The notes under the pieces: generated by a model
Seen by the model: the letters and a program-made list of their open reading frames with translations, nothing else
Told to the model about the DNA's origin: nothing
The model's database searches: none
Assembly (NCBI RefSeq): GCF_003019035.1
Contig: NZ_CP027447.1
Source of the DNA: Escherichia coli
GTDB taxonomy: Bacteria > Pseudomonadota > Gammaproteobacteria > Enterobacterales > Enterobacteriaceae
Direction: 5' to 3' (one strand)
DNA: 64,000 nt
In this document: piece by piece, positions 1-59,494 of the stretch
How positions within the stretch are numbered: the stretch's first letter is position 1
Layout: the number at the start of each line of letters is the position of its first letter
Made by a program: the position numbers and the translations under genes

Positions 1-285
1 TGCCGCAGGGCCAGTTATTGAGCGGTCAACGTGGCTCTCTGCTGCCAGGTGCATCACCGCGTCTGGCTGGTGCTGTGCGAAAATACGAGCCATCGCTTCG
101 GCATCGCAGATATCTGCATGCTCAAATGAATAACGTTCAGAATCAGAAATTTCAGCGAGTGATTCCAGGTTTCCGGCGTATGTTAATTTATCGACATTAA
201 CAACACTATCTTGCGTATTATTTATTATGTGACGAACAACAGCAGAACCAATAAATCCTGCGCCACCAGTAACAAGTATCTTCAC
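1..285 (-). CDS. rfbB: dTDP-glucose 4,6-dehydratase, N-terminal part (partial; gene continues beyond window start); GTG start at 285
   Basis: Reverse-complement translation gives [19 protein letters not shown]...[20 protein letters not shown], a Rossmann GxxGxxG N-terminus typical of RmlB; frame runs off the window edge. Confidence 0.85.
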
Positions 286-359
286 TTTTTTATTCCATAT
301 AGCCAGAGAGCATGCTGTGAAATAGACTGCTCCAGATTTGATTAATAGATGCATTAATG

Positions 360-399
360 CACGCTACCGCCCCTGGCTTAACAGCTACCAGAGCACTGC
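360..399 (-). promoter_or_regulatory. JUMPStart element with ops site (GGCGGTAGCGTG on minus strand) in the leader of the O-antigen operon
   Basis: Plus strand reads cacgctaccgcc at 360-371, the reverse complement of the ops 12-mer; it lies upstream of the rfbB start on the minus strand. Confidence 0.7.
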
Positions 400-576
400 G
401 TACATTTCCACGATGTGACGAGCGTAACCCACTCGTGCCAAATCCGAAAAATTCAAACGCTAATTGTCTTACCAAACAGCTGTAGAAACAAGGAAAATCC
501 TGGAAAAATTTGAACTATGATTGCAAGCTAACATGCTGTTTTTATTGTACTTATAAAAAAGACAACGGCAGTGAGA

Positions 577-631
577 TTCAATGAGCAAAACTTATGCTAT
601 GAATCTTCACTGCCGTTTTTAATTACTTACT
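577..631. terminator. Hairpin with flanking T/A runs downstream of galF; possible bidirectional terminator
   Basis: Inverted repeat cggcagtgagattca ... tgaatcttcactgccg followed by ttttt on plus strand and preceded by aaaaaa. Confidence 0.5.
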
Positions 632-657
632 GACCGACACTTCCAGTCAGGAATTTG

Positions 658-9999: not shown

Positions 10000-10099
10000 G
10001 TCGTTACCCTTTTTCAGGCAATAGTTGGCCCTGACCGAAACGGCCAATTTTGTTTTTTCGTTATTTACCGGAGAATTAATCCGGTTGATTATTCAACGG

Positions 10100-11538: not shown

Positions 11539-12762
11539 TTATCCCCGAATATCATTTATAAATTGACGTAACACGTTCTCTTTATCGAGCGTGCGTTCGG
11601 CATATTCACGTGCCACCGTGTTGTGTTTGGGCAGCAGGAGCGCCTGACGGATCCCCGCCACCAGCGCCTCGACCGATTCCGGTTCTACGCAAACCGCAAT
11701 GCCCGGAAAGGTTTCGCAAAGCTGTCCCAGTTCTGTGTGGGCTTCAGCAGTAATCACCGCGTTACCGCCTACCGCCAGAATATTGGTCAGTTTCGACGGC
11801 AATACGGCATCTGCCGCGCCGCGTTTTTGCACCACCAGATGGCAATCCCCCATCTTCAGCAGTGCGGGTAAAGCGTCATACGATTGCAGCGGGAAAAATT
11901 GCATGTTGCGCAGTCCACGCTGCTGCGCCATTTTTTCCAGCCGCGCTTTGCCGCCGCCCTGCCCGACAATGGCAAAAATCAGCGGTTCATCGCGCAGACG
12001 ATCGGCAGCTTCAATAACGTTTTCCAGCCCCTGCTTTTCACCAATATTGCCGGAGTAAAGAATGATTTTTTTGTTATCCGGCAGGTCAAGCTGGTTACGA
12101 AGGGCGTCAACATCGGCATCTGCAACATGCTGAAAACGGGCAATTTCCGACCAGTTGGGGAAGAAGATGACGTTTTCCGCCGCCACGCCTTTTTCGATGG
12201 CTTTATTCATCATCGAACGCGAAATCGTGGAGACGTTATCGACGTTATTCAGTCCGCTACGTTCGAACGCCGTTGCCAGCTGTGCCACTTTGCCGCCTTT
12301 GCCTTTTCCGGCAAGGCCCAGCCCCAGCATGGCGTCCACTTCGTAATCCTGAATATGTAGCACCGTGCGCGCACCAGACAGTTTCGCCAGCAGGCGCATT
12401 CCCGGCGTGCAAAACAGCGTTGGTACCACGCCGATAATGCGATCCGGCTTCCAGCGACGTTGCGCCATCAGCGGAAAGAAACTGCTGGCGGCAAAACTGC
12501 CGAGATGCAACAGGCGTTTCAGGGTGCTCGGCTGTTTTGGTACGTACAGCGGGCAGCGCCACACCGTGGCGGCCCCCTCTTCTCGTTTGTACCGCCAGGC
12601 GGAATAGTTCTCGCCCACCTGCCATTGCGGGTAGTAAGGCGGTGCGGTAATAACCCGCACCTCATGACCTTGTGCCGCCAGCCATTCCACCATCTCGCCG
12701 GTGTACTTGCCGATGCCGGTTAACTCCGGCGAGTAGTTAATGCCGTAGACCAGTATTTTCAT
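11539..12762 (-). CDS. wcaI: Colanic acid glycosyltransferase WcaI
   Basis: 407-aa GT-B like ORF; cluster position. Confidence 0.9.
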
Positions 12763-20414: not shown

Positions 20415-20447
20415 AGGTTGTTCTCCCGGCTTATGAGCTGGTTTGCT

Positions 20448-20481
20448 TGCCGGATGCGGCGTGAACGCCTTATCCGGCCTA
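20448..20481. repeat. REP (repetitive extragenic palindromic) element
   Basis: gccggatgcggcgtgaacgccttatccggcctac, canonical E. coli REP consensus. Confidence 0.8.
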
Positions 20482-20506
20482 CGGGGCGGTGCGAATGCAG
20501 GCGTCG

Positions 20507-23120: not shown

Positions 23121-24260
23121 TTACCAGTTATGAATGTCGCTGGCTGTATCCGTCATGTAACGGACACCGCTAATAGTTGGCAGCAACTGATTGATCAGAC
23201 GGTTCCAGCGGGATACCGGTGCGGTGGTGACATACACCACGTCATAAGGTTGCAGGCGGAATTCTGTCGCCATCACCAGCGACGTGGCATCGGACATATC
23301 CAGCTGGTAGATATTGGCAATCTTGCCGTTACGCCCGCCCTCGCCTTTCAACGGACGAATGACAAAGATGCCGCTGGCGTTGGAGGTGGTCATGTCGATG
23401 CCTTCAGCATTACCCAGGGCTTCAGTCAGGGTCATGCCGCTAAAGTCCATTTTCAGGGTGCTCTGTTTCTTCACTTCACCCATCACAAACACTTTCAGAT
23501 CATCATTACGCGGCACGTAGAGAATATCGCCGGGGTAAAGCAGTCGGTTCTGATTGAGGTCGCCGTTTTGCATCAGCGCCTGCAAAGAAATGCGCTCTTC
23601 ACGACCATTGTGTGTTAGCACCACGTTGCGCCAGTCAGCGGTGTCGGTCAGGCCACCTGCGGCGTTGATGGCGTCGAGAATGGTCAGTGGCACGTTGGTG
23701 ATCGCCTGTTGACCGGATTTATTCACCTGACCGGAGATATAGGCTTTTTGCGAGCGGAAGGCGGCGATATTAACGTCCACCTGCGGGTCAGCGATGTACG
23801 TCGCTAAGCGCCCGGTAATATCACTGCGGATTTCAGCGAGCGTTTTCCCCACCACGTGAACTTTGCCGATATACGGGTAGAACATGGTGCCGTCAGGCTG
23901 TACCCAGTTGCCGGTGTCGCTGGAGCTGCGGTACTGACCGGCTGGCGTGGTGAGTTCCGGGTGATCCCAGACGGTGACATTAAGAACGTCTCCCGGCCCG
24001 ACGCGATACTGATAATTCGCGATCTCACTTTCCAGCGTCATATTGGGGCGCGCTACATTCGGGCGTGGGCGTAATTGGTCAATCAGGCGCGGGGTCAGCG
24101 GATAAACATTCACCATTTTGTCGAGATCGAAATCAGCGTCCTGCTGTTTGATGACGTCTTTCCCCATCGTCGACATATTGCTGCCCGGAAGTACTGTGCA
24201 ACCGCTTATCAAGGTTACTGACACCAATAATGGCATCAATTTCATTTTGGATTTCATCAT
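23121..24260 (-). CDS. wza: Outer-membrane polysaccharide export lipoprotein Wza
   Basis: 379-aa ORF with lipoprotein signal (…[10 protein letters not shown]). Confidence 0.95.
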
Positions 24261-24438
24261 TGTTTATTTATCACTTTGGCAGAGTAATTATCCTGTGCAC
24301 TATTAATAGCAATGTCGCCATGCACATTTACCTTGCAGTTAATTGAATAAAAATTTAACTGGCATCAGTCCTAAAAAAATTGATTTCATCCGCAGGCTAT
24401 TGACAGAATAATTCAGACTGGTCTTTCAGGCATCCAGA

Positions 24439-24478
24439 CACGCTACCGCCCCTGGCTTTTTAGCTACCAATACACTGA
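24439..24478 (-). promoter_or_regulatory. JUMPStart/ops element in the wza (cps operon) leader
   Basis: Plus strand cacgctaccgcc at 24439-24450 is the reverse complement of ops GGCGGTAGCGTG; flanks nearly identical to the copy at 360-399. Confidence 0.75.
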
Positions 24479-24664
24479 TTTAGCTTAATTTTTAAAACCC
24501 TCTCAACATACAGTCGTTGATGAGAAAGGGTTATTGCGGAAATTAACTTCCGAATATAAGGTGACATTATGGTAATTGAATATTGGCTCTCCAATAATGC
24601 AGGAGGAAGTGTTACAGCTAACGGAATAGCAGGCAAGGTAACAATTCGGCAATTGGCTATTTTT

Positions 24665-24678
24665 AAGAATTATATTAA
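24665..24678 (-). promoter_or_regulatory. Candidate RcsAB-box-like sequence upstream of cps operon
   Basis: taagaattatatta resembles the TaAGaatatTCctA consensus recalled from memory; location far upstream of wza is plausible but unverified. Confidence 0.25.
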
Positions 24679-24918
24679 GTGTCATTCAATATGGTTTTTA
24701 GGAGTTTCTTTAGGTTGACAATATTTAATATAGTGTCTCCACATGCGATATTTCTTAAATAATGTTTTATTATTACCACTTTTAATTCAGGGATAATGTG
24801 AGGTTATAAACCTCAAATAATATGAGATAAATAGTGCTGCAACATTGCATTTTTGCCCCGATTTATCCATGATCGAATTGTGACATTTGTCATACAACGA
24901 ATAGGTTTTGTACTTACT

Positions 24919-26502
24919 ATGGAATGGATTGCCGATCCGTCTATCTGGGCCGGGTTAATCACGCTGATTGTGATCGAACTGGTCCTCGGCATTGATAACC
25001 TGGTCTTTATTGCCATCCTCGCCGAAAAACTACCGCCGAAGCAGCGCGACCGCGCACGGGTTACCGGGCTCCTGCTGGCGATGTTAATGCGCCTGTTACT
25101 GCTGGCGTCAATCTCCTGGCTGGTCACCCTGACTCAACCGCTGTTCAGCTTCCGCTCGTTTACCTTTAGCGCCCGCGACTTAATCATGCTGTTTGGTGGT
25201 TTCTTCCTGCTGTTCAAAGCCACGATGGAGCTGAACGAACGGCTGGAGGGGAAAGACAGCAATAACCCCACGCAACGCAAAGGTGCGAAGTTCTGGGGGG
25301 TGGTGACACAAATTGTGGTACTGGACGCCATCTTCTCACTCGACTCGGTGATTACCGCCGTCGGGATGGTCGACCATTTACTGGTCATGATGGCCGCCGT
25401 CGTTATCGCTATTAGCCTGATGTTGATGGCCAGCAAGCCCTTAACGCAATTTGTTAACAGTCACCCGACGATCGTTATTCTCTGCTTAAGCTTCCTGTTG
25501 ATGATTGGCTTTAGCCTGGTGGCAGAAGGTTTCGGCTTCGTCATACCGAAAGGCTACCTGTACGCTGCTATTGGTTTCTCGGTGATGATCGAGGCGCTCA
25601 ATCAGTTGGCTATCTTTAACCGGCGACGTTTTCTTTCCGCTAACCAGACACTGCGCCAGCGGACTACCGAAGCGGTAATGCGCCTGCTTAGCGGGCAAAA
25701 AGAAGATGCGGAACTGGACGCCGAAACCGCGTCCATGCTGGTGGATCATGGTAACCAGCAGATCTTTAATCCGCAGGAACGGCGGATGATTGAGCGGGTA
25801 CTTAATCTTAACCAGCGTACCGTCAGCAGCATTATGACGTCGCGCCACGATATTGAGCATATCGATCTCAACGCGCCGGAAGAAGAAATCCGCCAGTTGC
25901 TGGAGCGAAATCAGCATACGCGGCTGGTGGTTACCGACGGTGATGACGCAGAAGATTTGCTCGGTGTTGTTCACGTTATCGACCTGCTACAACAGTCTCT
26001 GCGCGGCGAACCGCTCAACCTGCGGGTGTTGATTCGCCAGCCGCTGGTGTTCCCGGAAACCTTGCCGTTGTTACCTGCCCTGGAGCAGTTCCGTAATGCC
26101 CGCACGCACTTTGCTTTTGTAGTGGATGAGTTTGGCTCGGTGGAAGGGATTGTGACATTAAGTGACGTCACTGAAACCATTGCCGGTAACTTGCCGAACG
26201 AAGTGGAAGAGATCGACGCCCGCCATGATATTCAGAAAAATGCGGACGGTTCCTGGACGGCGAATGGTCATATGCCGCTGGAAGATCTGGTGCAATATGT
26301 GCCGCTGCCGCTGGATGAAAAACGTGAATATCACACCATTGCCGGGCTATTGATGGAATATTTGCAGCGTATTCCAAAACCTGGCGAAGAAGTTCAGGTG
26401 GGGGATTATTTGCTTAAAACGTTGCAGGTGGAAAGCCATCGCGTGCAGAAGGTGCAAATTATTCCGCTACGTAAGGATGGCGAGATGGAGTACGAGGTGT
26501 GA
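24919..26502 (+). CDS. yegH: Inner-membrane protein YegH (TerC-like N-terminal domain, CBS pair and CorC/transporter-associated C-terminus)
   Basis: Start at [13 protein letters not shown]…; 527 aa; ORF-track 22-codon upstream extension rejected. Confidence 0.9.
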
Positions 26503-26576: not shown

Positions 26577-26915
26577 ATGAGAAAAAAGCTGGCTTTTCTT
26601 GATACCAGTCTTGACGATTTACGCGCATTTCCAGAATCGTCTCGACAGGAAATTGGCTATCAACTCGACAGGTTCCAACAAGGGTTAAACCCATACGACT
26701 GGAAACCTTTTTCAACTATCGGCCCTGGTGTGCGAGAGATTCGTACTCGCGATGCTGATGGGATCTATCGCGTCATGTATATCGCAAAATTTGAAGAAGC
26801 GGTTTACGTATTGCATTGTTTTCAAAAGAAAACACAGACTACCAGTCAATCGGATGTTGATTTAGCCAAACGACGCTATAAAGAACTTGTTCAGGAGCGG
26901 AAAAATGAAAATTGA
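26577..26915 (+). CDS. Type II toxin, RelE/ParE-fold, HigB-2/Gp49-like ('addiction module killer protein' family)
   Basis: 112-aa ORF with RBS aaggatgga; sequence pattern …IRTRDADGIYRVMYIAKFEEAVYVLHCFQKKTQ… typical of Gp49/HigB-like toxins; followed by an overlapping XRE antitoxin gene. Confidence 0.7.
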   Translation: MRKKLAFLDTSLDDLRAFPESSRQEIGYQLDRFQQGLNPYDWKPFSTIGPGVREIRTRDADGIYRVMYIAKFEEAVYVLHCFQKKTQTTSQSDVDLAKRRYKELVQERKNEN

Positions 26916-27195
26916 AACCTTTGATAGTGTGTGGGATGCGGTGAGTGACACCCCTGAACAAGCGGAAAATATGCGGATCCGTGCCGAACTTGTAACGATC
27001 ATTAATAACTGGATTGAACAACAAGGGTTTAGCCAGGCCCAGGCAGCGTCTGCTTTAGGGGTCACTCAACCTCGCATATCTGAACTTGCCAGAGGTAAGA
27101 TCCAGATCTTTAGTATCGATAAATTGATCACCATGATGGCTCATGCAGGATTGCATATTCAACGTATTGAAATTCAATATCCACATGCTGCTTAG
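26905..27195 (+). CDS. Type II antitoxin, XRE-family HTH ('addiction module antidote protein')
   Basis: 96-aa ORF MKIETFDSVWDAV… with HTH LGVTQPRISELARGK; RBS aggagcgg; overlaps toxin gene by 11 nt. Confidence 0.7.
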   Translation: MKIETFDSVWDAVSDTPEQAENMRIRAELVTIINNWIEQQGFSQAQAASALGVTQPRISELARGKIQIFSIDKLITMMAHAGLHIQRIEIQYPHAA

Positions 27196-40556: not shown

Positions 40557-40736
40557 AAGAAATCCTTTCTTAGAGAATTATTGAGGTCCGGTATCATACC
40601 GATTGCAATAATGAAATAAGAGCAAACGAAGAAACTTTCAGAATTAGGCCCGGCGGCGCAGAAAATTTTGCTATTCGCCTCGCAAGAACGGAGAGCCGTC
40701 GATTGACACTAAGGGCGGAGTGACATAATTTCAGGA

Positions 40737-40886
40737 GTGAGGGTTAGGGAGAGGTTTCCCCCTCCCCCTGGTGTTCTTAGTAAGCCTGGAAGCTAATCAC
40801 TAAGAGTATCACCAGTATGATGACGTGCTTCATCATAACCCTTTCCTTATTAAAAGCCCTCTTCTCCGGGAGAGGGTTTCCCGTTT
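40737..40886 (+). ncRNA. sibA: Sib antisense sRNA (type I antitoxin), copy 1; ends approximate
   Basis: -35 ttgaca (40703-40708), 17-bp spacer, -10 taattt (40726-40731); intrinsic terminator gccctcttctccgggagagggtttcccgtttc ending ~40886; fully antisense to ibs ORF. Confidence 0.6.
40777..40836 (-). CDS. ibsA: Type I toxin IbsA-like, 19 aa (MMKHVIILVILLVISFQAY)
   Basis: Reverse-complement translation; SD aaggaaag upstream; differs from remembered K-12 IbsA by one residue (P17Q). Confidence 0.8.
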   Translation of the reverse strand: MMKHVIILVILLVISFQAY

Positions 40887-41071
40887 CAGCGTCCCGCTGA
40901 AATCGTCGGCTTACCTCCTTTCGCCCTGAATGCAGTCTATCGCTAACGCGTGAACAAAATAGTTTCCTCTGTGATTATTCCGTAACGACTCGCAAAGAAT
41001 ATTTGCTGGCAGGATCGCAGACTACAAAGCCTGCGGATTGACAATCTTATCGTGAAGGCATAATTTCAGGA

Positions 41072-41214
41072 GTGAGGGTAGAGCGGGGTTTCCCCCGCCC
41101 TGGTAGTCTTAGTAAGCGGGGAAGCTTATGACTAAGAGCACCACGATGATGAGTATCTTCATCATGACCCTTTCCTTATTTATGGCCCCTTCCTCGGGAG
41201 GGGCTTTCCCGTTT
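41072..41214 (+). ncRNA. sibB: Sib antisense sRNA, copy 2; ends approximate
   Basis: -35 ttgaca 41038-41043, -10 taattt 41061-41066; terminator hairpin ggcccctcctcgggaggggc + ttcccgtttc (41184-41214). Confidence 0.6.
41109..41165 (-). CDS. ibsB: Type I toxin IbsB-like, 18 aa (MMKILIIVVLLVISFPAY)
   Basis: Reverse-complement translation with SD; hydrophobic Ibs-family peptide. Confidence 0.8.
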   Translation of the reverse strand: MMKILIIVVLLVISFPAY

Positions 41215-41399
41215 CAGCGTCCCGCTGAAATCGTCGGCTTACCTCCTTCTGTCCTGTATGCAGTCTATCGCTGACTTGCGGATAAAATAGTTTCCAATGT
41301 GATTATTGCGTAACGTCTCGCAAAGAATATTTGCTGGCAGGATCGCAGACTGCAAAGCCTGCAGATTGACAATATTATCGTGAAGGCATACTTTCAGGA

Positions 41400-41543
41400 G
41401 TGAGGGTAGAGCGGGGTTTCCCCCGCCCTGGTAGTCTTAGTAAGCCGGGAAGCTTATGACTAAGAGCACCACGATGATGATCCACTTCATCATGACCCTT
41501 TCCTTATTTAAGGCCCCTTCCTCGGGAGGGGCTTTCCCGTTTC
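41400..41543 (+). ncRNA. Sib antisense sRNA, copy 3; ends approximate
   Basis: -35 ttgaca 41366-41371, -10 tacttt 41389-41394; terminator hairpin 41512-41543. Confidence 0.55.
41437..41493 (-). CDS. Type I toxin Ibs-family, third copy, 18 aa (MMKWIIIVVLLVISFPAY)
   Basis: Reverse-complement translation; same frame/SD as copy 2 but with Trp at position 4. Confidence 0.7.
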   Translation of the reverse strand: MMKWIIIVVLLVISFPAY

Positions 41544-43019: not shown

Positions 43020-46000
43020 TGCAGGTGTTACCCCCGAGCAGCACAGGCGGCCCGTCGCGCCTGTTTATTATGCGTCCGGTGGCCACCACGCTGCTGATGG
43101 TGGCGATCTTACTCGCCGGGATTATCGGTTATCGCGCCCTGCCCGTTTCGGCGCTGCCGGAAGTGGACTATCCAACCATTCAGGTGGTCACCCTCTACCC
43201 AGGTGCGAGCCCGGATGTCATGACCTCTGCCGTTACCGCGCCGCTTGAACGCCAGTTTGGGCAGATGTCTGGCCTGAAACAGATGTCGTCGCAAAGTTCC
43301 GGCGGTGCGTCAGTTATCACTTTGCAGTTCCAGCTAACATTACCGCTCGATGTCGCCGAGCAGGAAGTGCAGGCCGCGATTAACGCTGCGACCAACTTGT
43401 TGCCGAGCGATCTGCCTAACCCGCCGGTTTACAGCAAAGTGAACCCGGCAGATCCGCCGATCATGACGCTCGCTGTCACCTCAACCGCCATGCCGATGAC
43501 GCAAGTGGAAGATATGGTGGAAACCCGCGTCGCGCAAAAAATCTCGCAGATTTCCGGCGTCGGCCTGGTGACGCTTTCCGGCGGCCAGCGTCCGGCTGTT
43601 CGCGTCAAACTTAACGCCCAGGCGATTGCCGCCCTCGGCCTGACCAGCGAAACCGTGCGCACCGCTATTACCGGCGCTAACGTTAACTCGGCAAAAGGTA
43701 GCCTCGACGGCCCTTCCCGTGCGGTTACGCTTTCCGCTAACGATCAGATGCAATCCGCCGAAGAGTATCGCCAGCTAATCATCGCCTACCAGAACGGCGC
43801 GCCGATTCGTCTGGGCGATGTCGCAACTGTAGAGCAAGGTGCAGAAAACAGTTGGCTCGGCGCATGGGCGAACAAAGAACAGGCCATTGTGATGAATGTT
43901 CAGCGCCAGCCCGGTGCTAACATTATCTCCACCGCCGACAGCATCCGGCAGATGCTGCCACAGCTCACCGAGAGTCTGCCGAAATCGGTGAAGGTGACGG
44001 TGCTTTCTGACCGCACCACCAACATCCGCGCATCGGTCGACGATACCCAGTTTGAATTAATGATGGCTATCGCGCTGGTAGTCATGATTATCTACCTGTT
44101 TTTGCGCAATATTCCGGCGACCATTATTCCTGGCGTCGCAGTGCCGCTGTCGTTAATCGGCACCTTCGCAGTCATGGTGTTTCTCGATTTTTCGATCAAT
44201 AACCTGACGCTGATGGCGTTAACTATCGCCACCGGATTCGTGGTCGATGACGCCATCGTGGTGATCGAGAACATTTCGCGCTATATCGAAAAAGGCGAAA
44301 AACCGCTGGCGGCGGCGCTCAAAGGCGCGGGTGAAATCGGCTTTACCATTATCTCGCTGACCTTCTCACTGATTGCAGTGTTGATCCCACTGTTATTTAT
44401 GGGCGATATCGTCGGGCGACTGTTCCGCGAATTTGCCATTACTCTGGCAGTCGCGATTTTGATCTCAGCCGTGGTGTCGCTGACCCTGACGCCGATGATG
44501 TGCGCACGGATGCTCAGCCAGGAGTCACTGCGTAAACAGAACAGCTTCTCCCGTGCCTCGGAGAAAATGTTCGACAGGATAATCGCCGCCTATGGTCGTG
44601 GACTGGCGAAAGTGCTGAATCATCCGTGGCTGACTTTAAGCGTGGCACTCAGCACTCTGCTGCTTAGTGTTCTCTTGTGGGTGTTCATTCCGAAAGGTTT
44701 CTTCCCAGTACAGGACAACGGCATTATTCAGGGCACTTTGCAGGCACCGCAATCCAGCTCCTTTGCCAATATGGCCCAGCGGCAACGCCAGGTCGCGGAT
44801 GTGATTTTGCAGGATCCGGCAGTGCAAAGCCTGACCTCGTTTGTTGGCGTTGATGGCACTAACCCGTCGCTGAACAGTGCGCGTTTGCAGATCAACCTCA
44901 AACCGTTGGATGAACGTGATGATCGGGTGCAAAAAGTCATCGCCCGTCTGCAAACGGCGGTAGATAAAGTGCCGGGCGTCGATCTCTTCCTGCAACCAAC
45001 GCAGGACCTGACTATTGATACTCAGGTCAGCCGCACCCAGTACCAGTTTACCTTGCAGGCCACGTCACTGGATGCGCTCAGTACCTGGGTGCCACAGTTG
45101 ATGGAAAAACTCCAGCAGCTGCCACAGCTTTCTGATGTCTCCAGCGACTGGCAGGACAAAGGGCTGGTGGCGTATGTCAATGTTGATCGCGACAGCGCCA
45201 GCCGTCTGGGGATCAGCATGGCGGACGTCGATAACGCCCTTTACAACGCGTTTGGTCAGCGACTGATTTCCACTATTTATACTCAGGCCAACCAGTATCG
45301 CGTGGTGCTGGAGCACAACACCGAAAATACTCCTGGGCTTGCGGCGCTGGATACTATTCGCCTGACCAGCAGCGACGGCGGCGTGGTGCCGCTAAGCTCA
45401 ATTGCCAAAATTGAGCAGCGTTTTGCGCCGCTTTCCATCAACCATCTGGATCAGTTCCCGGTAACGACCATCTCCTTTAACGTGCCGGATAACTATTCGC
45501 TGGGCGATGCGGTGCAAGCGATTATGGACACCGAAAAGACGCTGAATCTGCCGGTGGATATCACCACGCAGTTCCAGGGCAGCACCCTCGCCTTCCAGTC
45601 GGCGCTGGGCAGCACGGTCTGGCTGATTGTCGCGGCGGTGGTGGCGATGTATATCGTGCTCGGCATTCTGTACGAGAGCTTTATTCACCCGATCACCATT
45701 CTCTCGACGCTACCCACCGCAGGGGTCGGCGCGCTGCTGGCGTTAATGATTGCCGGTAGCGAACTGGATGTGATTGCCATTATCGGCATTATTTTGCTGA
45801 TCGGTATCGTGAAGAAGAACGCCATCATGATGATCGACTTCGCGCTGGCTGCCGAGCGCGAGCAAGGCATGTCGCCGCGCGATGCAATCTACCAGGCTTG
45901 TCTGTTGCGTTTTCGTCCGATCCTGATGACCACCCTGGCGGCTCTGCTCGGCGCGCTACCGCTGATGTTGAGTACCGGGGTCGGCGCGGAACTGCGTCGT

Positions 46001-54171: not shown

Positions 54172-55533
54172 ATGTTTAAACCGGAACTCCTTTCCCCGGC
54201 GGGAACGCTGAAAAATATGCGTTACGCTTTCGCTTATGGCGCAGATGCTGTTTATGCGGGCCAGCCGCGTTACTCCCTGCGTGTGCGCAACAACGAATTC
54301 AACCACGAAAATCTCCAGCTCGGCATCAATGAAGCCCACGCGCTGGGGAAAAAGTTTTATGTCGTGGTCAACATTGCACCGCACAACGCCAAGCTGAAAA
54401 CCTTTATCCGTGACCTGAAACCGGTGGTGGAGATGGGGCCGGATGCGCTGATTATGTCCGATCCAGGGCTGATTATGCTGGTGCGCGAGCACTTCCCTGA
54501 AATGCCGATCCACCTCTCGGTGCAGGCTAACGCCGTGAACTGGGCGACGGTGAAATTCTGGCAGCAAATGGGACTGACCCGCGTGATCCTCTCTCGCGAG
54601 CTGTCGCTGGAAGAGATTGAAGAGATCCGTAATCAGGTGCCGGGTATGGAGATCGAGATCTTCGTTCACGGTGCGCTGTGCATGGCCTACTCCGGTCGCT
54701 GCCTGCTCTCTGGCTATATCAACAAGCGCGACCCGAACCAGGGCACCTGCACCAACGCCTGCCGCTGGGAGTACAACGTCCAGGAAGGGAAAGAAGATGA
54801 CGTTGGCAACATCGTGCACAAGTACGAGCCGATTCCGGTGCAAAATGTTGAGCCGACGCTGGGCATCGGCGCGCCAACCGACAAAGTGTTTATGATCGAA
54901 GAAGCTCAGCGTCCGGGCGAGTATATGACTGCGTTTGAAGATGAGCACGGCACTTACATCATGAACTCGAAAGATCTGCGCGCTATCGCCCACGTTGAAC
55001 GCCTGACCAAAATGGGCGTGCATTCGCTGAAAATCGAAGGTCGTACAAAATCTTTCTACTATTGCGCACGCACCGCGCAGGTTTACCGTAAAGCTATCGA
55101 TGACGCAGCTGCGGGAAAACCATTCGATACCAGCCTGCTGGAAACTCTGGAAGGTCTGGCGCATCGTGGCTATACCGAAGGTTTCCTGCGTCGTCATACT
55201 CACGACGATTATCAGAACTACGAATACGGTTATTCAGTTTCTGACCGCCAGCAGTTTGTTGGTGAGTTTACCGGTGAGCGCAAGGGCGACCTCGCGGCGG
55301 TAGCGGTGAAAAATAAATTCTCCGTTGGCGACAGCCTTGAGCTGATGACGCCGCAAGGGAACATTAACTTTACCCTTGAGCATATGGAAAACGCCAAAGG
55401 TGAAGCTATGCCGGTCGCACCAGGCGATGGTTATACTGTGTGGATCCCGGTGCCGCAGGATCTTGAGCTAAATTACGCGCTGCTGATGCGTAATTTCTCC
55501 GGGGAAACCACGCGTAACCCCCACGGTAAGTGA
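54172..55533 (+). CDS. yegQ: Peptidase-U32-family protein YegQ (TrhP, implicated in tRNA ho5U synthesis)
   Basis: 453-aa ORF MFKPELLSPAGTLKNMRYAFAYGADAVYAG…. Confidence 0.92.
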   Translation: MFKPELLSPAGTLKNMRYAFAYGADAVYAGQPRYSLRVRNNEFNHENLQLGINEAHALGKKFYVVVNIAPHNAKLKTFIRDLKPVVEMGPDALIMSDPGLIMLVREHFPEMPIHLSVQANAVNWATVKFWQQMGLTRVILSRELSLEEIEEIRNQVPGMEIEIFVHGALCMAYSGRCLLSGYINKRDPNQGTCTNACRWEYNVQEGKEDDVGNIVHKYEPIPVQNVEPTLGIGAPTDKVFMIEEAQRPGEYMTAFEDEHGTYIMNSKDLRAIAHVERLTKMGVHSLKIEGRTKSFYYCARTAQVYRKAIDDAAAGKPFDTSLLETLEGLAHRGYTEGFLRRHTHDDYQNYEYGYSVSDRQQFVGEFTGERKGDLAAVAVKNKFSVGDSLELMTPQGNINFTLEHMENAKGEAMPVAPGDGYTVWIPVPQDLELNYALLMRNFSGETTRNPHGK

Positions 55534-55861
55534 TTCATTTCGATTATTTTTCCCGGATGGAAAATTCTTAGAAACCGATCACATACAGCTGCATTTATTA
55601 AGGTTATCATCCGTTTCGCTGAAAAACATAACCCATAAAATGCTAGCTGTACCAGGAACCACCTCCTTAGCCTGTGTAATCTCCCTTACACGGGCTTATT
55701 TTTTATACATAAGCCGTATCCTGGTAACCGTCTTCCATTGACCACATCGATAGAATCTCCCCTCATAGCACGATGCCTTTCACTTATTGGCATCGTGCTC
55801 GCACAGGTTCCGGTTACGCACAGCCAGAACGCGCATGTTTGACGCTTACCAAAAAATATTC

Positions 55862-58453: not shown

Positions 58454-59494
58454 TCAGGGAATGAGCAACACTTTGCCCGGCATAGCATTACGAGCGATGT
58501 CACGCACCGCCTGGGCGAAGCTTTCAAAGCTTCCACGGTGAGCGATTAATGGCTCCAGGCTTAACTTACGTTCTGTCAGCAACCGGCTCGCCGTTTCCCA
58601 CTCCTGCCCCGGCCAAGGGCTGGAGTAGTTCATCCAACTGCCAATCACCGTCAGCTCTTTACGCAATATTTTGCCAAACGTTGCCGATGTTAAATGCAGA
58701 TCCTGATGCAACGTGCCCACCAGCGCCAGTTGGGCATGAGGACCGGCAATCTCTACCGCCAGTTCGACGGTTTGCGGGACGCCAGCCGTCTCGAGGATAA
58801 GCTGATTAAAGCGCAGCTCGCGTAAAACGCCCTGTATTTGCGGCGCGCTCATTTCACGGCTGTTAAATGTTTGCATCGCACCGAAAGATTTTGCCAGTGC
58901 CAGTTTTTCTGAGCTAATGTCGATAGCCGTCACACTCTTTGCTCCCAGCGCGACAGCGCACTGAATTGCCAGCAGGCCAATGGTTCCGGCACCAATAATA
59001 ATAACGTTTTTATTCTCACATCCTTGCGCTAAATGGAACGCATGCAGGCCAACGGTAATCGGTTCAATAAAAGCGCCATCCTCAATAGGCATATCCGCAG
59101 GTAGTGCAAAGACATTGTTTCGCTTAACGACAATATATTCGGCAAATCCACCATCACGCCGTGAGCCAATAAAATCATATTTTGCGCACTGGGAATAAAA
59201 CCCTTTCAGACACTCTGGACAAGTAAAACAGGGTAATAACGGCACACAGGCAACCGCATCGCCGGGATGTAAATCATCAATACCGGATCCCACCGCATCA
59301 ATATAGCCGCTAAATTCATGGCCTAACGTTATTGGATAATAATGTGCACCATTTTTAAATATCCTGGGTAAATCGGAACCACATAAGCCCGAGCTGGCAA
59401 TTTTTACCCGCACCTCATCCTGATGTTTAATTTCAGGAATGACGCTTTCTGCTACGCGCACGATACCATCAGTATCATTCACCACTGATTTCAT
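58454..59494 (-). CDS. gatD: Galactitol-1-phosphate 5-dehydrogenase (Zn-dependent MDR family)
   Basis: 346-aa ORF with Zn-ADH motifs (GHEFSG, CxxCxxC). Confidence 0.95.
   Translation of the reverse strand: MKSVVNDTDGIVRVAESVIPEIKHQDEVRVKIASSGLCGSDLPRIFKNGAHYYPITLGHEFSGYIDAVGSGIDDLHPGDAVACVPLLPCFTCPECLKGFYSQCAKYDFIGSRRDGGFAEYIVVKRNNVFALPADMPIEDGAFIEPITVGLHAFHLAQGCENKNVIIIGAGTIGLLAIQCAVALGAKSVTAIDISSEKLALAKSFGAMQTFNSREMSAPQIQGVLRELRFNQLILETAGVPQTVELAVEIAGPHAQLALVGTLHQDLHLTSATFGKILRKELTVIGSWMNYSSPWPGQEWETASRLLTERKLSLEPLIAHRGSFESFAQAVRDIARNAMPGKVLLIP

Follow-up and report, generated by a model that had tools for sequence, protein, structure and literature searches.

Two JUMPStart/ops elements in the leaders of the colanic-acid and O-antigen operons of Escherichia coli

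The stretch of DNA analysed here (hereafter, the window; 64,000 nucleotides) is part of an Escherichia coli chromosome and, judging from its list of open reading frames (ORFs), carries on its minus strand the gene order yegH, wza-wzb-wzc-wcaA…wcaM-galF and rmlB. On the ORF map the minus-strand series is continuous from wza (24260) to wcaM (1726) and is then followed by galF (1563-658). The colanic-acid operon wza-wzb-wzc-wcaA…wcaM (1726-24260, minus strand; about 22.5 kb) is the transcription unit served by the ops sequence found at 24439. In the RefSeq annotation of an identical genome wza, wzb and wzc are named, with a divergent yegH on the other side, and homologues of Wza, Wzb, Wzc and WcaM are present in syntenic loci among the matches listed in the interspecies scan described below. 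The start of rmlB, the gene that opens the O-antigen cluster, was recognized by translation at positions 1-285 (minus strand, GTG at 285), from where the gene runs off the window; it is 81-91% identical to ORFs found downstream of JUMPStart in other genera among the matches listed. RfaH, the regulator that acts on leaders of this kind, was originally defined in E. coli; its gene, rfaH, is absent from the 64-kb window. The 601 bases around the cps site show 100% identity to E. coli ATCC 11775 and to many other strains; of 5426 complete E. coli genomes, 4816 have this 601-bp leader with an identity of 95% or higher. Within the species, the galF-rmlB leader (286-657, minus strand) is much more variable than the yegH-wza leader (24200-24800, minus strand): 2046 E. 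coli genomes carry the former at 80-90% identity, nearly all carry the latter at 95% or more, and in some genomes the JUMPStart segment of the galF-rmlB leader is the only part that matches.

Some additional features of the window were also noticed. Two small overlapping ORFs between yegH and asmA (26577-27195, plus strand) correspond, in the RefSeq annotation of the identical genome, to a RelE/ParE-family toxin and an HTH protein, a toxin-antitoxin pair that is not known from that spot in K-12. Three tandem Sib antitoxin RNAs (RF00113, 141-150 bits) are found at 40703-40851, 41038-41180, and 41366-41508 (plus strand), with a spacing of about 330 nt. Since K-12 presumably has two copies at the corresponding locus (sibA and sibB), the third one here may represent an additional Sib/Ibs toxin-antitoxin module of this strain. 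The gene of the small RNA CyaR (RyeE) is located at 55616-55701 (plus strand; RF00112, 100.7 bits).

The initial annotation of this DNA reported a minus-strand GGCGGTAGCGTG in the leaders of both polysaccharide operons. This 12-mer indeed occurs exactly at 24439-24450 and at 360-371, in both cases on the minus strand, and nowhere else in the window, where 0.01 occurrences are expected and where two or more were obtained in none of 100 shuffles. Both copies match exactly the 12-nt ops consensus GGCGGTAGnnTG, and a 31-nt pattern with 28 specified bases, whose expected number is 0.00, is also found twice. The flanking strings that had been quoted for the two copies are plus-strand readings of AAGCCAGGGG and TGGTAGCT, each of which is present in both copies. 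Both leaders contain a complete 39-nt JUMPStart element, read from 24477 to 24439 and from 398 to 360, and ops makes up its last 12 nt. The cps element, CAGTGTATTGGTAGCTAAAAAGCCAGGGGCGGTAGCGTG (24439-24477, minus strand), scores 57.3 bits against the Rfam family RF01707 and the rfb (O-antigen) element, CAGTGCTCTGGTAGCTGTTAAGCCAGGGGCGGTAGCGTG (360-398, minus strand, downstream of galF; ops at 360-371), scores 61.1 bits; both cover positions 1-38 of the 38 of the model, the gathering score of the family is 35, and the E-values for the whole window range from 1e-10 to 1e-11. The spans originally assigned to the elements (24439-24478 and 360-399) were therefore correct in location and one base too long at the 5′ end, the elements measuring 39 and not 40 nt. 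Both elements are intergenic and stand ahead of the first genes of long surface-polysaccharide operons, colanic acid in one case and O-antigen in the other. The cps ops, the site of RfaH recruitment and pausing (24439-24450, minus strand, in agreement with wza), ends 178 nt before the ATG of wza, and from the end of the rfb ops to the GTG of rmlB the distance is 74 nt; both lie on the coding (non-template) strand of the operon that follows them (wza…wcaM and rmlB, respectively). Among the matches listed, E. coli E69 and a Citrobacter MAG each have a 39-mer identical to the cps element ahead of wza. These results confirm that both sequences are genuine copies of the known JUMPStart/ops signal, an ordinary and already described feature.

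The 8-nt core of ops, GGCGGTAG, is present seven times in the window against 1.24 expected, a number reached in none of 100 shuffles. Copies are located at 11769-11776 (minus strand), 25030-25037 (minus strand), 44956-44963 (plus strand), 55296-55303 (plus strand), and 58753-58760 (minus strand), and one of the copies lies inside wcaI on the sense strand, directly followed by GGCGGTAAC. In published ChIP data, ops sites within coding regions give no RfaH signal.

The anatomy of the cps leader was examined by aligning yegH-wza leaders from 11 genera. Starting from yegH, two conserved blocks, TTGTCAACCTAAAGAAACTCCTAAA (24722-24697) and TTAATATAATTCTTAAAAA (24678-24660; both on the minus strand, together 24660-24722), may correspond to RcsAB activator sites. 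The published RcsAB consensus TAAGAATATTCCTA had no match in the cps leader with up to three mismatches, for which reason the blocks are treated as candidate sites. They are followed by a conserved block (24646-24605) that contains the candidate cps promoter TTGCCT-N16-TAACAC (24608-24636, minus strand); transcription driven from this sequence would begin around position 24600, with about 120 nt between the start and JUMPStart downstream. A simple sigma-70 scan had proposed another site at 24593-24566, which lies in a segment that is unconserved between genera; the conserved TTGCCT-N16-TAACAC is favored for this reason, both sites being candidates. A non-conserved stretch (24600-24480) separates the promoter-like block, about 130 nt upstream of JUMPStart, from the element itself, which emerges in the 11 genera as an island of conservation after the variable segment. 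The conserved promoter-like block, together with the literature, would place JUMPStart in the transcribed leader. RefSeq annotates a 49-aa hypothetical CDS (about 24569-24718, plus strand) antisense across the conserved promoter and activator region, which is probably a spurious call.

Downstream of JUMPStart, conservation resumes in three blocks (24413-24398, 24377-24352, and 24298-24250), so that the wza 5′ UTR (24250-24413, minus strand) keeps ATTATTCTGTCAATAG, TTTTTAGGACTGATGCCAGTTA, and GCACAGGATAATTACTCTGCCAAAGTGATAAATAA-CAATG in the 11 genera. RNAalifold proposed an 11-bp helix between 24413-24403 and 24296-24286, which was rejected: no compensatory change was observed in 28 distinct leaders, and two Enterobacter leaders drop the 5′ arm and keep the 3′ arm. 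The same program also proposed a 6-bp hairpin (24361-24356 with 24341-24336). The conservation of the blocks of the wza 5′ UTR is one of sequence. No recognizable Shine-Dalgarno sequence is found before wza (24261-24290, minus strand) or before rmlB (286-315, minus strand); GGAG- or GAGG-like sites precede many of the genes inside the cps operon. RfaH has been reported to recruit ribosomes to mRNAs that lack a Shine-Dalgarno sequence (PMC6391919), a role that fits the situation of both wza and rmlB.

The distribution of the element was explored by scanning one genome per species with the pattern CAGYG-N20-22-GGGCGGTAGCGTG, in which the stem-loop was left unconstrained. The scan gave at least 120 loci. 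About one third of the 120 matches listed belong to unrelated phyla and have neither a stem nor a polysaccharide context; as the pattern is loose and a rough estimate predicts tens of chance matches, they were taken as such and excluded. Polysaccharide-operon contexts account for 83 of the matches listed, which fall into two main syntenic classes and a smaller mixed group. The first class, with the element between yegH and wza-wzb-wzc, is represented among the matches listed by Escherichia, Citrobacter, Salmonella, Enterobacter, Lelliottia, Trabulsiella, Siccibacter, Phytobacter, and Pluralibacter. Where wza comes directly next, its distance from the element is, among these matches, nearly constant, the Wza alignment starting at about +215, and extra genes are intercalated within this class in Erwinia, Pantoea, Serratia, and Brenneria. 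In the second class the listed matches lie between galF and rmlB or other O-antigen genes. The mixed group of the list comprises elements located before waaQ-type heptosyltransferases, wzx flippases, wzz, wzi, a CDP-sugar reductase, or ABC-2 exporters. Several of the genomes in the list hold both main classes 10-27 kb apart, as the window does. Three records with unexpected taxonomic labels also carry Enterobacteriaceae-type JUMPStart elements: a 4155-bp contig of coverage 2 labeled Arthrobacter sp. GMC3 (L072), where the element stands beside a galF 100% identical to that of E. coli; an Erysipelotrichia MAG (L074), where it precedes a glycosyltransferase-like ORF and a manC-like ORF; and a Wohlfahrtiimonas MAG (L077), where it is found beside galF and rmlB. 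These three cases are probably due to contamination or mis-binning.

Upstream of ops, the family has a 5-bp stem that ends one base before it, and in the RF01707 model both window copies are able to form all five pairs. In the cps copy, the stem-loop of the Rfam structure line occupies 24452-24470 (minus strand), with the arms UUGGU at 24470-24466 and GCCAG at 24456-24452; in the rfb copy the arms are at 391-387 and 377-373 (minus strand). The outer pair is U·G in the former and C-G in the latter. In an alignment of 56 distinct context-verified elements among the matches listed, 96.4% of the stem cells are paired and four of the five pairs are changed on both sides. The variants in this alignment are C-G, U·G, and U-A for the outer pair, U-A, A-U, G-C, and G·U for the second pair, and U·G, C-G, G-C, and U-A for the inner pair. 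The observed values were reached in none of 500 column shuffles, and sliding the 3′ arm by one to three columns left 19-60% of the cells paired; the sequences had been picked by their flanks and gene context, not by the stem, and are mutually related, so the shuffle count is not to be read as a probability. Covariation is also seen among the listed stems of the cps class taken alone, with U·G, U-A, C-G, and G-C variants. The isolated 39-nt RNAs fold with energies no better than those of shuffles (z ≈ 0), and the minimum-energy fold of the cps copy is a different one that does not use the family stem; support for the stem thus comes from comparison and not from thermodynamics. Only the sense strand tolerates G·U pairs, which points to a single-stranded structure of that strand, in the simplest case the nascent RNA. 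The stem has its 3′ base 12 nt upstream of the presumed pause position, a U within ops, and this spacing resembles the geometry of pause hairpins. The conserved stem-loop, which takes up the 5′ two-thirds of the element, may have a role as a nascent-RNA structure or otherwise.

Between the two transcription units, a hairpin followed by a U-run was found after galF (564-617, minus strand; -30.8 kcal/mol, z = -6.1, none of 200 shuffles as stable); the sequence that follows the fold is UCUUUUUUAU. According to this fold, it is probably the terminator that separates the cps/galF transcript from the rfb unit. It was found by folding, a simple terminator scan having missed it because of its long loop. 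Inside the operon, the gap between wzc and wcaA (20415-20506) contains a REP-type palindrome, GCCGGAT…ATCCGGC (20449-20478, minus strand; recognized by sequence and fold), which is a candidate for an internal attenuator read through by RfaH-modified polymerase. A stable palindrome just after wzc is present in 12 of 13 other loci examined, and the sequence families involved are unrelated: they are REP-like in E. coli, Citrobacter, and Salmonella and of the CCCTCTCCCC/GGGGAGAGGG type in Enterobacter. At the corresponding loci (L015, L018, L023, L045, L053, L080, L083, L103, and L111), the position of the palindrome is conserved and its sequence has turned over. A literature search joining RfaH, wzc, and stem-loop found nothing. 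Farther along the same operon, the gap between cpsB/manC and cpsG/manB (10004-10053, minus strand) matches the 'algC RNA' of Rfam (RF02929, 78 bits for a gathering score of 33.8), a curated cis-regulatory family that here lies within the colanic-acid operon.

The JUMPStart sequence was reportedly described by Hobbs and Reeves in 1994, and the ops/RfaH connection is said to go back to Bailey, Hughes and Koronakis in 1997. The 1996 paper of Stout on the cps promoter region is credited with the element upstream of wza, and a study by Wang et al. from 1998 is said to have had the RfaH regulation of O-antigen via JUMPstart as its subject. The wca operon has been described with a JUMPStart-RfaH mechanism on the authority of Stout (1996) and Hobbs and Reeves (1994) (PMC9976346), and a passage of another paper cites Wang et al. 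(1998) for the expression of O-antigen through JUMPstart (PMC12791035). The mechanism of ops, which constitutes a class II consensus pause, has been reviewed (PMC6391919). In the strain CFT073, RfaH was detected by ChIP at eight leader ops sites including wza, with signals that were lost in a ΔrfaH mutant, and also at the O-antigen operon, named wzx in that paper (PMC9765446; Hustmyer et al., 2022). The signal at wza was visible only in a Δhns ΔstpA background, and wza-wcaM was listed among the 'previously uncharacterized' and 'likely cryptic' RfaH loci (PMC9765446). Elsewhere RfaH is stated to be required for the genes downstream of wzc, one wording for cps being 'presumably' (PMC3673037). 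The RfaH-dependent antitermination of both operons proposed in the initial annotation is thus supported by the coding-strand sites in the leaders, by the RF01707 matches, and by the literature. The description as well established applies less to the colanic-acid half than to the rfb half, the former being the one that the 2022 ChIP study counted among the likely cryptic loci and saw only in Δhns ΔstpA cells.

Very probably, then, both sequences are functional JUMPStart/ops elements which load RfaH in the transcribed leaders of two adjacent operons, that of colanic acid (from wza to wcaM) and that of O-antigen (from rmlB onward). In this statement, sequence, strand, position, family, synteny, and covariation come from the present analysis, and the binding and effects of RfaH come from the literature; no sequence evidence contradicting the explanation was found. 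According to the proposed mechanism, polymerase would transcribe the leader until the 12-nt ops is exposed on the non-template strand, where it would pause; the exposed strand would form a small hairpin to be read by RfaH. RfaH would then open, its N-terminal domain locking on the polymerase and its C-terminal domain refolding to contact the ribosomal protein S10. Over the 20 kb of the operon, the polymerase so modified would be resistant to pausing, to Rho-dependent termination, and to roadblocks formed by H-NS. The gene next to the leader has no Shine-Dalgarno sequence, and its translation would be coupled to this polymerase. RfaH would be loaded once per transcript and lost at termination, which would account for the presence of one copy per operon, and the galF terminator would split the two units; a protein loaded once, together with a terminator after galF, would explain why rfb needs an ops of its own.

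The likeness of the two copies also calls for an explanation. Aligned with each other, the cps and rfb elements are identical at 33 of 39 positions (85%), including the 20 nt of the 3′ end; the similarity claimed at the outset is therefore real and its degree, 'near-identical', was mildly overstated. The pairwise alignment that had been suggested as a check shows that the similarity is not confined to the ops core: it extends 27 nt further upstream and ends at the limit of the 39-nt element, the 60-nt flanks on either side being 32% and 25% identical in register, as in random sequences. When the two leaders are compared, their best local match without gaps scores 22, compared with 9.3 ± 1.1 (maximum 16) in 300 shuffles. 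The six mismatches form two 3-nt clusters (element positions 6-8 and 17-19) located where the RF01707 model is free, namely at bases 6-8 and in the loop, and one of them alters the outer pair of the stem. Coincidence can be dismissed as the source of the two matches, given that the 12-mer and the 28-base pattern were each found twice against the practically null expectations given above and that the Rfam E-values are as low as indicated. Recent duplication or gene conversion between the neighboring leaders would account for two copies 24 kb apart on the same strand with an identical 20-nt 3′ end, but that end is invariant across the whole family in the alignment of 56 distinct elements among the matches listed, and the flanks are devoid of homology. 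Moreover, among these same elements the rfb copy has one to three differences from the galF-rmlB copies of Enterobacter, Citrobacter, and Lelliottia and the cps copy has one to three from the yegH-wza copies of E. coli, Citrobacter, and Enterobacter, compared with six between the two copies of the window. This comparison with counterparts in other genera led us to reject a recent exchange, which is extremely improbable, and argues that family constraint explains the resemblance. The likeness would then reflect a family consensus under selection at two old, independently maintained sites, with no special mutual relationship between them.

As regards function, the cps copy might instead be a non-working relic of the consensus, colanic acid being controlled by RcsAB and H-NS at initiation only. 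In wild-type CFT073 grown in rich medium no RfaH signal is seen at wza (PMC9765446), and the need of RfaH for cps has been worded as 'presumably' (PMC3673037). However, the missing signal can be attributed to the silencing of the promoter by H-NS, as RfaH is recruited at wza once the promoter fires (PMC9765446). A relic would hardly have kept its place, about 180 nt ahead of wza, in many genera in which the adjoining leader has diverged, nor would its stem be expected to covary within the cps class; we consider this explanation very unlikely. More room must be given to the idea, unlikely but less so, that the half of JUMPStart upstream of ops acts mainly as RNA, either as a hairpin that tunes the pause or as a leader RNA that binds RfaH. 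The covariation of the stem, in which G·U pairing is tolerated in the sense strand alone, and the spacing of 12 nt between its 3′ base and the pause, similar to that of pause hairpins, speak for such a role. Against it, ops is classed as a pause of the backtrack type (class II), the stem is short and its stability does not exceed that of shuffled sequences, and recruitment needs the conserved 12-nt ops DNA, which RfaH binds on the non-template strand when elongation complexes are static (PMC6391919). In any case, a role at the RNA level adds to the loading of RfaH at ops and does not replace it. A precedent is RirA, a leader RNA of waaQ with JUMPstart and ops that binds RfaH (PMC5736990). RirA is a 73-nt RfaH-binding RNA species; no RirA-like RNA is known from the cps or rfb leaders. 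It is conceivable, and we regard it as doubtful, that the stem is a nascent-RNA hairpin which lengthens the ops pause or gives RfaH a second contact and that, in addition, cps leader transcripts with JUMPStart and ops, made once Rcs turns on the strong cps promoter, compete for scarce RfaH as RirA does. If this were true, such competition would couple the induction of colanic acid to a lower expression of O-antigen and core.

With RfaH loading at ops retained as the explanation, the two elements can be compared with the systems already described. Their likeness to the JUMPStart/ops family (RF01707) covers the length of 39 nt, the CAGYG start, the GGTAGC-containing stem-loop, the invariant GGCGGTAGCGTG 3′ end, the sense-strand orientation, and the location within a polysaccharide-operon leader, the full model being matched by both copies. 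From this family the cps copy departs in a U·G for a C-G outer pair and in an A-rich loop, AAA for GUU, and otherwise in nothing substantial. The locus and the gene order are the same as in the cps/wca promoter region of E. coli K-12 and in wza-wcaM of CFT073. At element position 6, which is unconstrained in the family, the cps copy of the window has T where E. coli SCPM-O-B-8794 (L037) has C. The group 1 capsule (K30-type) and Klebsiella cps clusters likewise have JUMPStart ahead of a wza-wzb-wzc export block, but there the element is found after galF and before wzi (PMC6128206), whereas the cps copy of the window follows yegH and has no wzi. In the window, galF and the second JUMPStart precede O-antigen genes, another point of contrast with that arrangement (PMC6128206). 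Among the matches listed, Pluralibacter has a JUMPStart with a gene for Wzi behind it, and the waaQ-type copies recovered carry the compensated stem CAGG…CCUG.

The two sequences are a textbook cis-element at two textbook positions and, as such, they were already known; the evidence for the colanic-acid half is newer and more conditional than that for the O-antigen half. The occupancy of wza-wcaM by RfaH was published in 2022, and the value of the two elements as a discovery is small. Their value lies in annotation, as they show where two RfaH-dependent transcription units have their 5′ ends, and they explain how the distal genes of 20-kb, AT-rich, and H-NS-prone operons are expressed. In the engineering of these clusters, for example for the overproduction of colanic acid, both leaders are to be kept intact.
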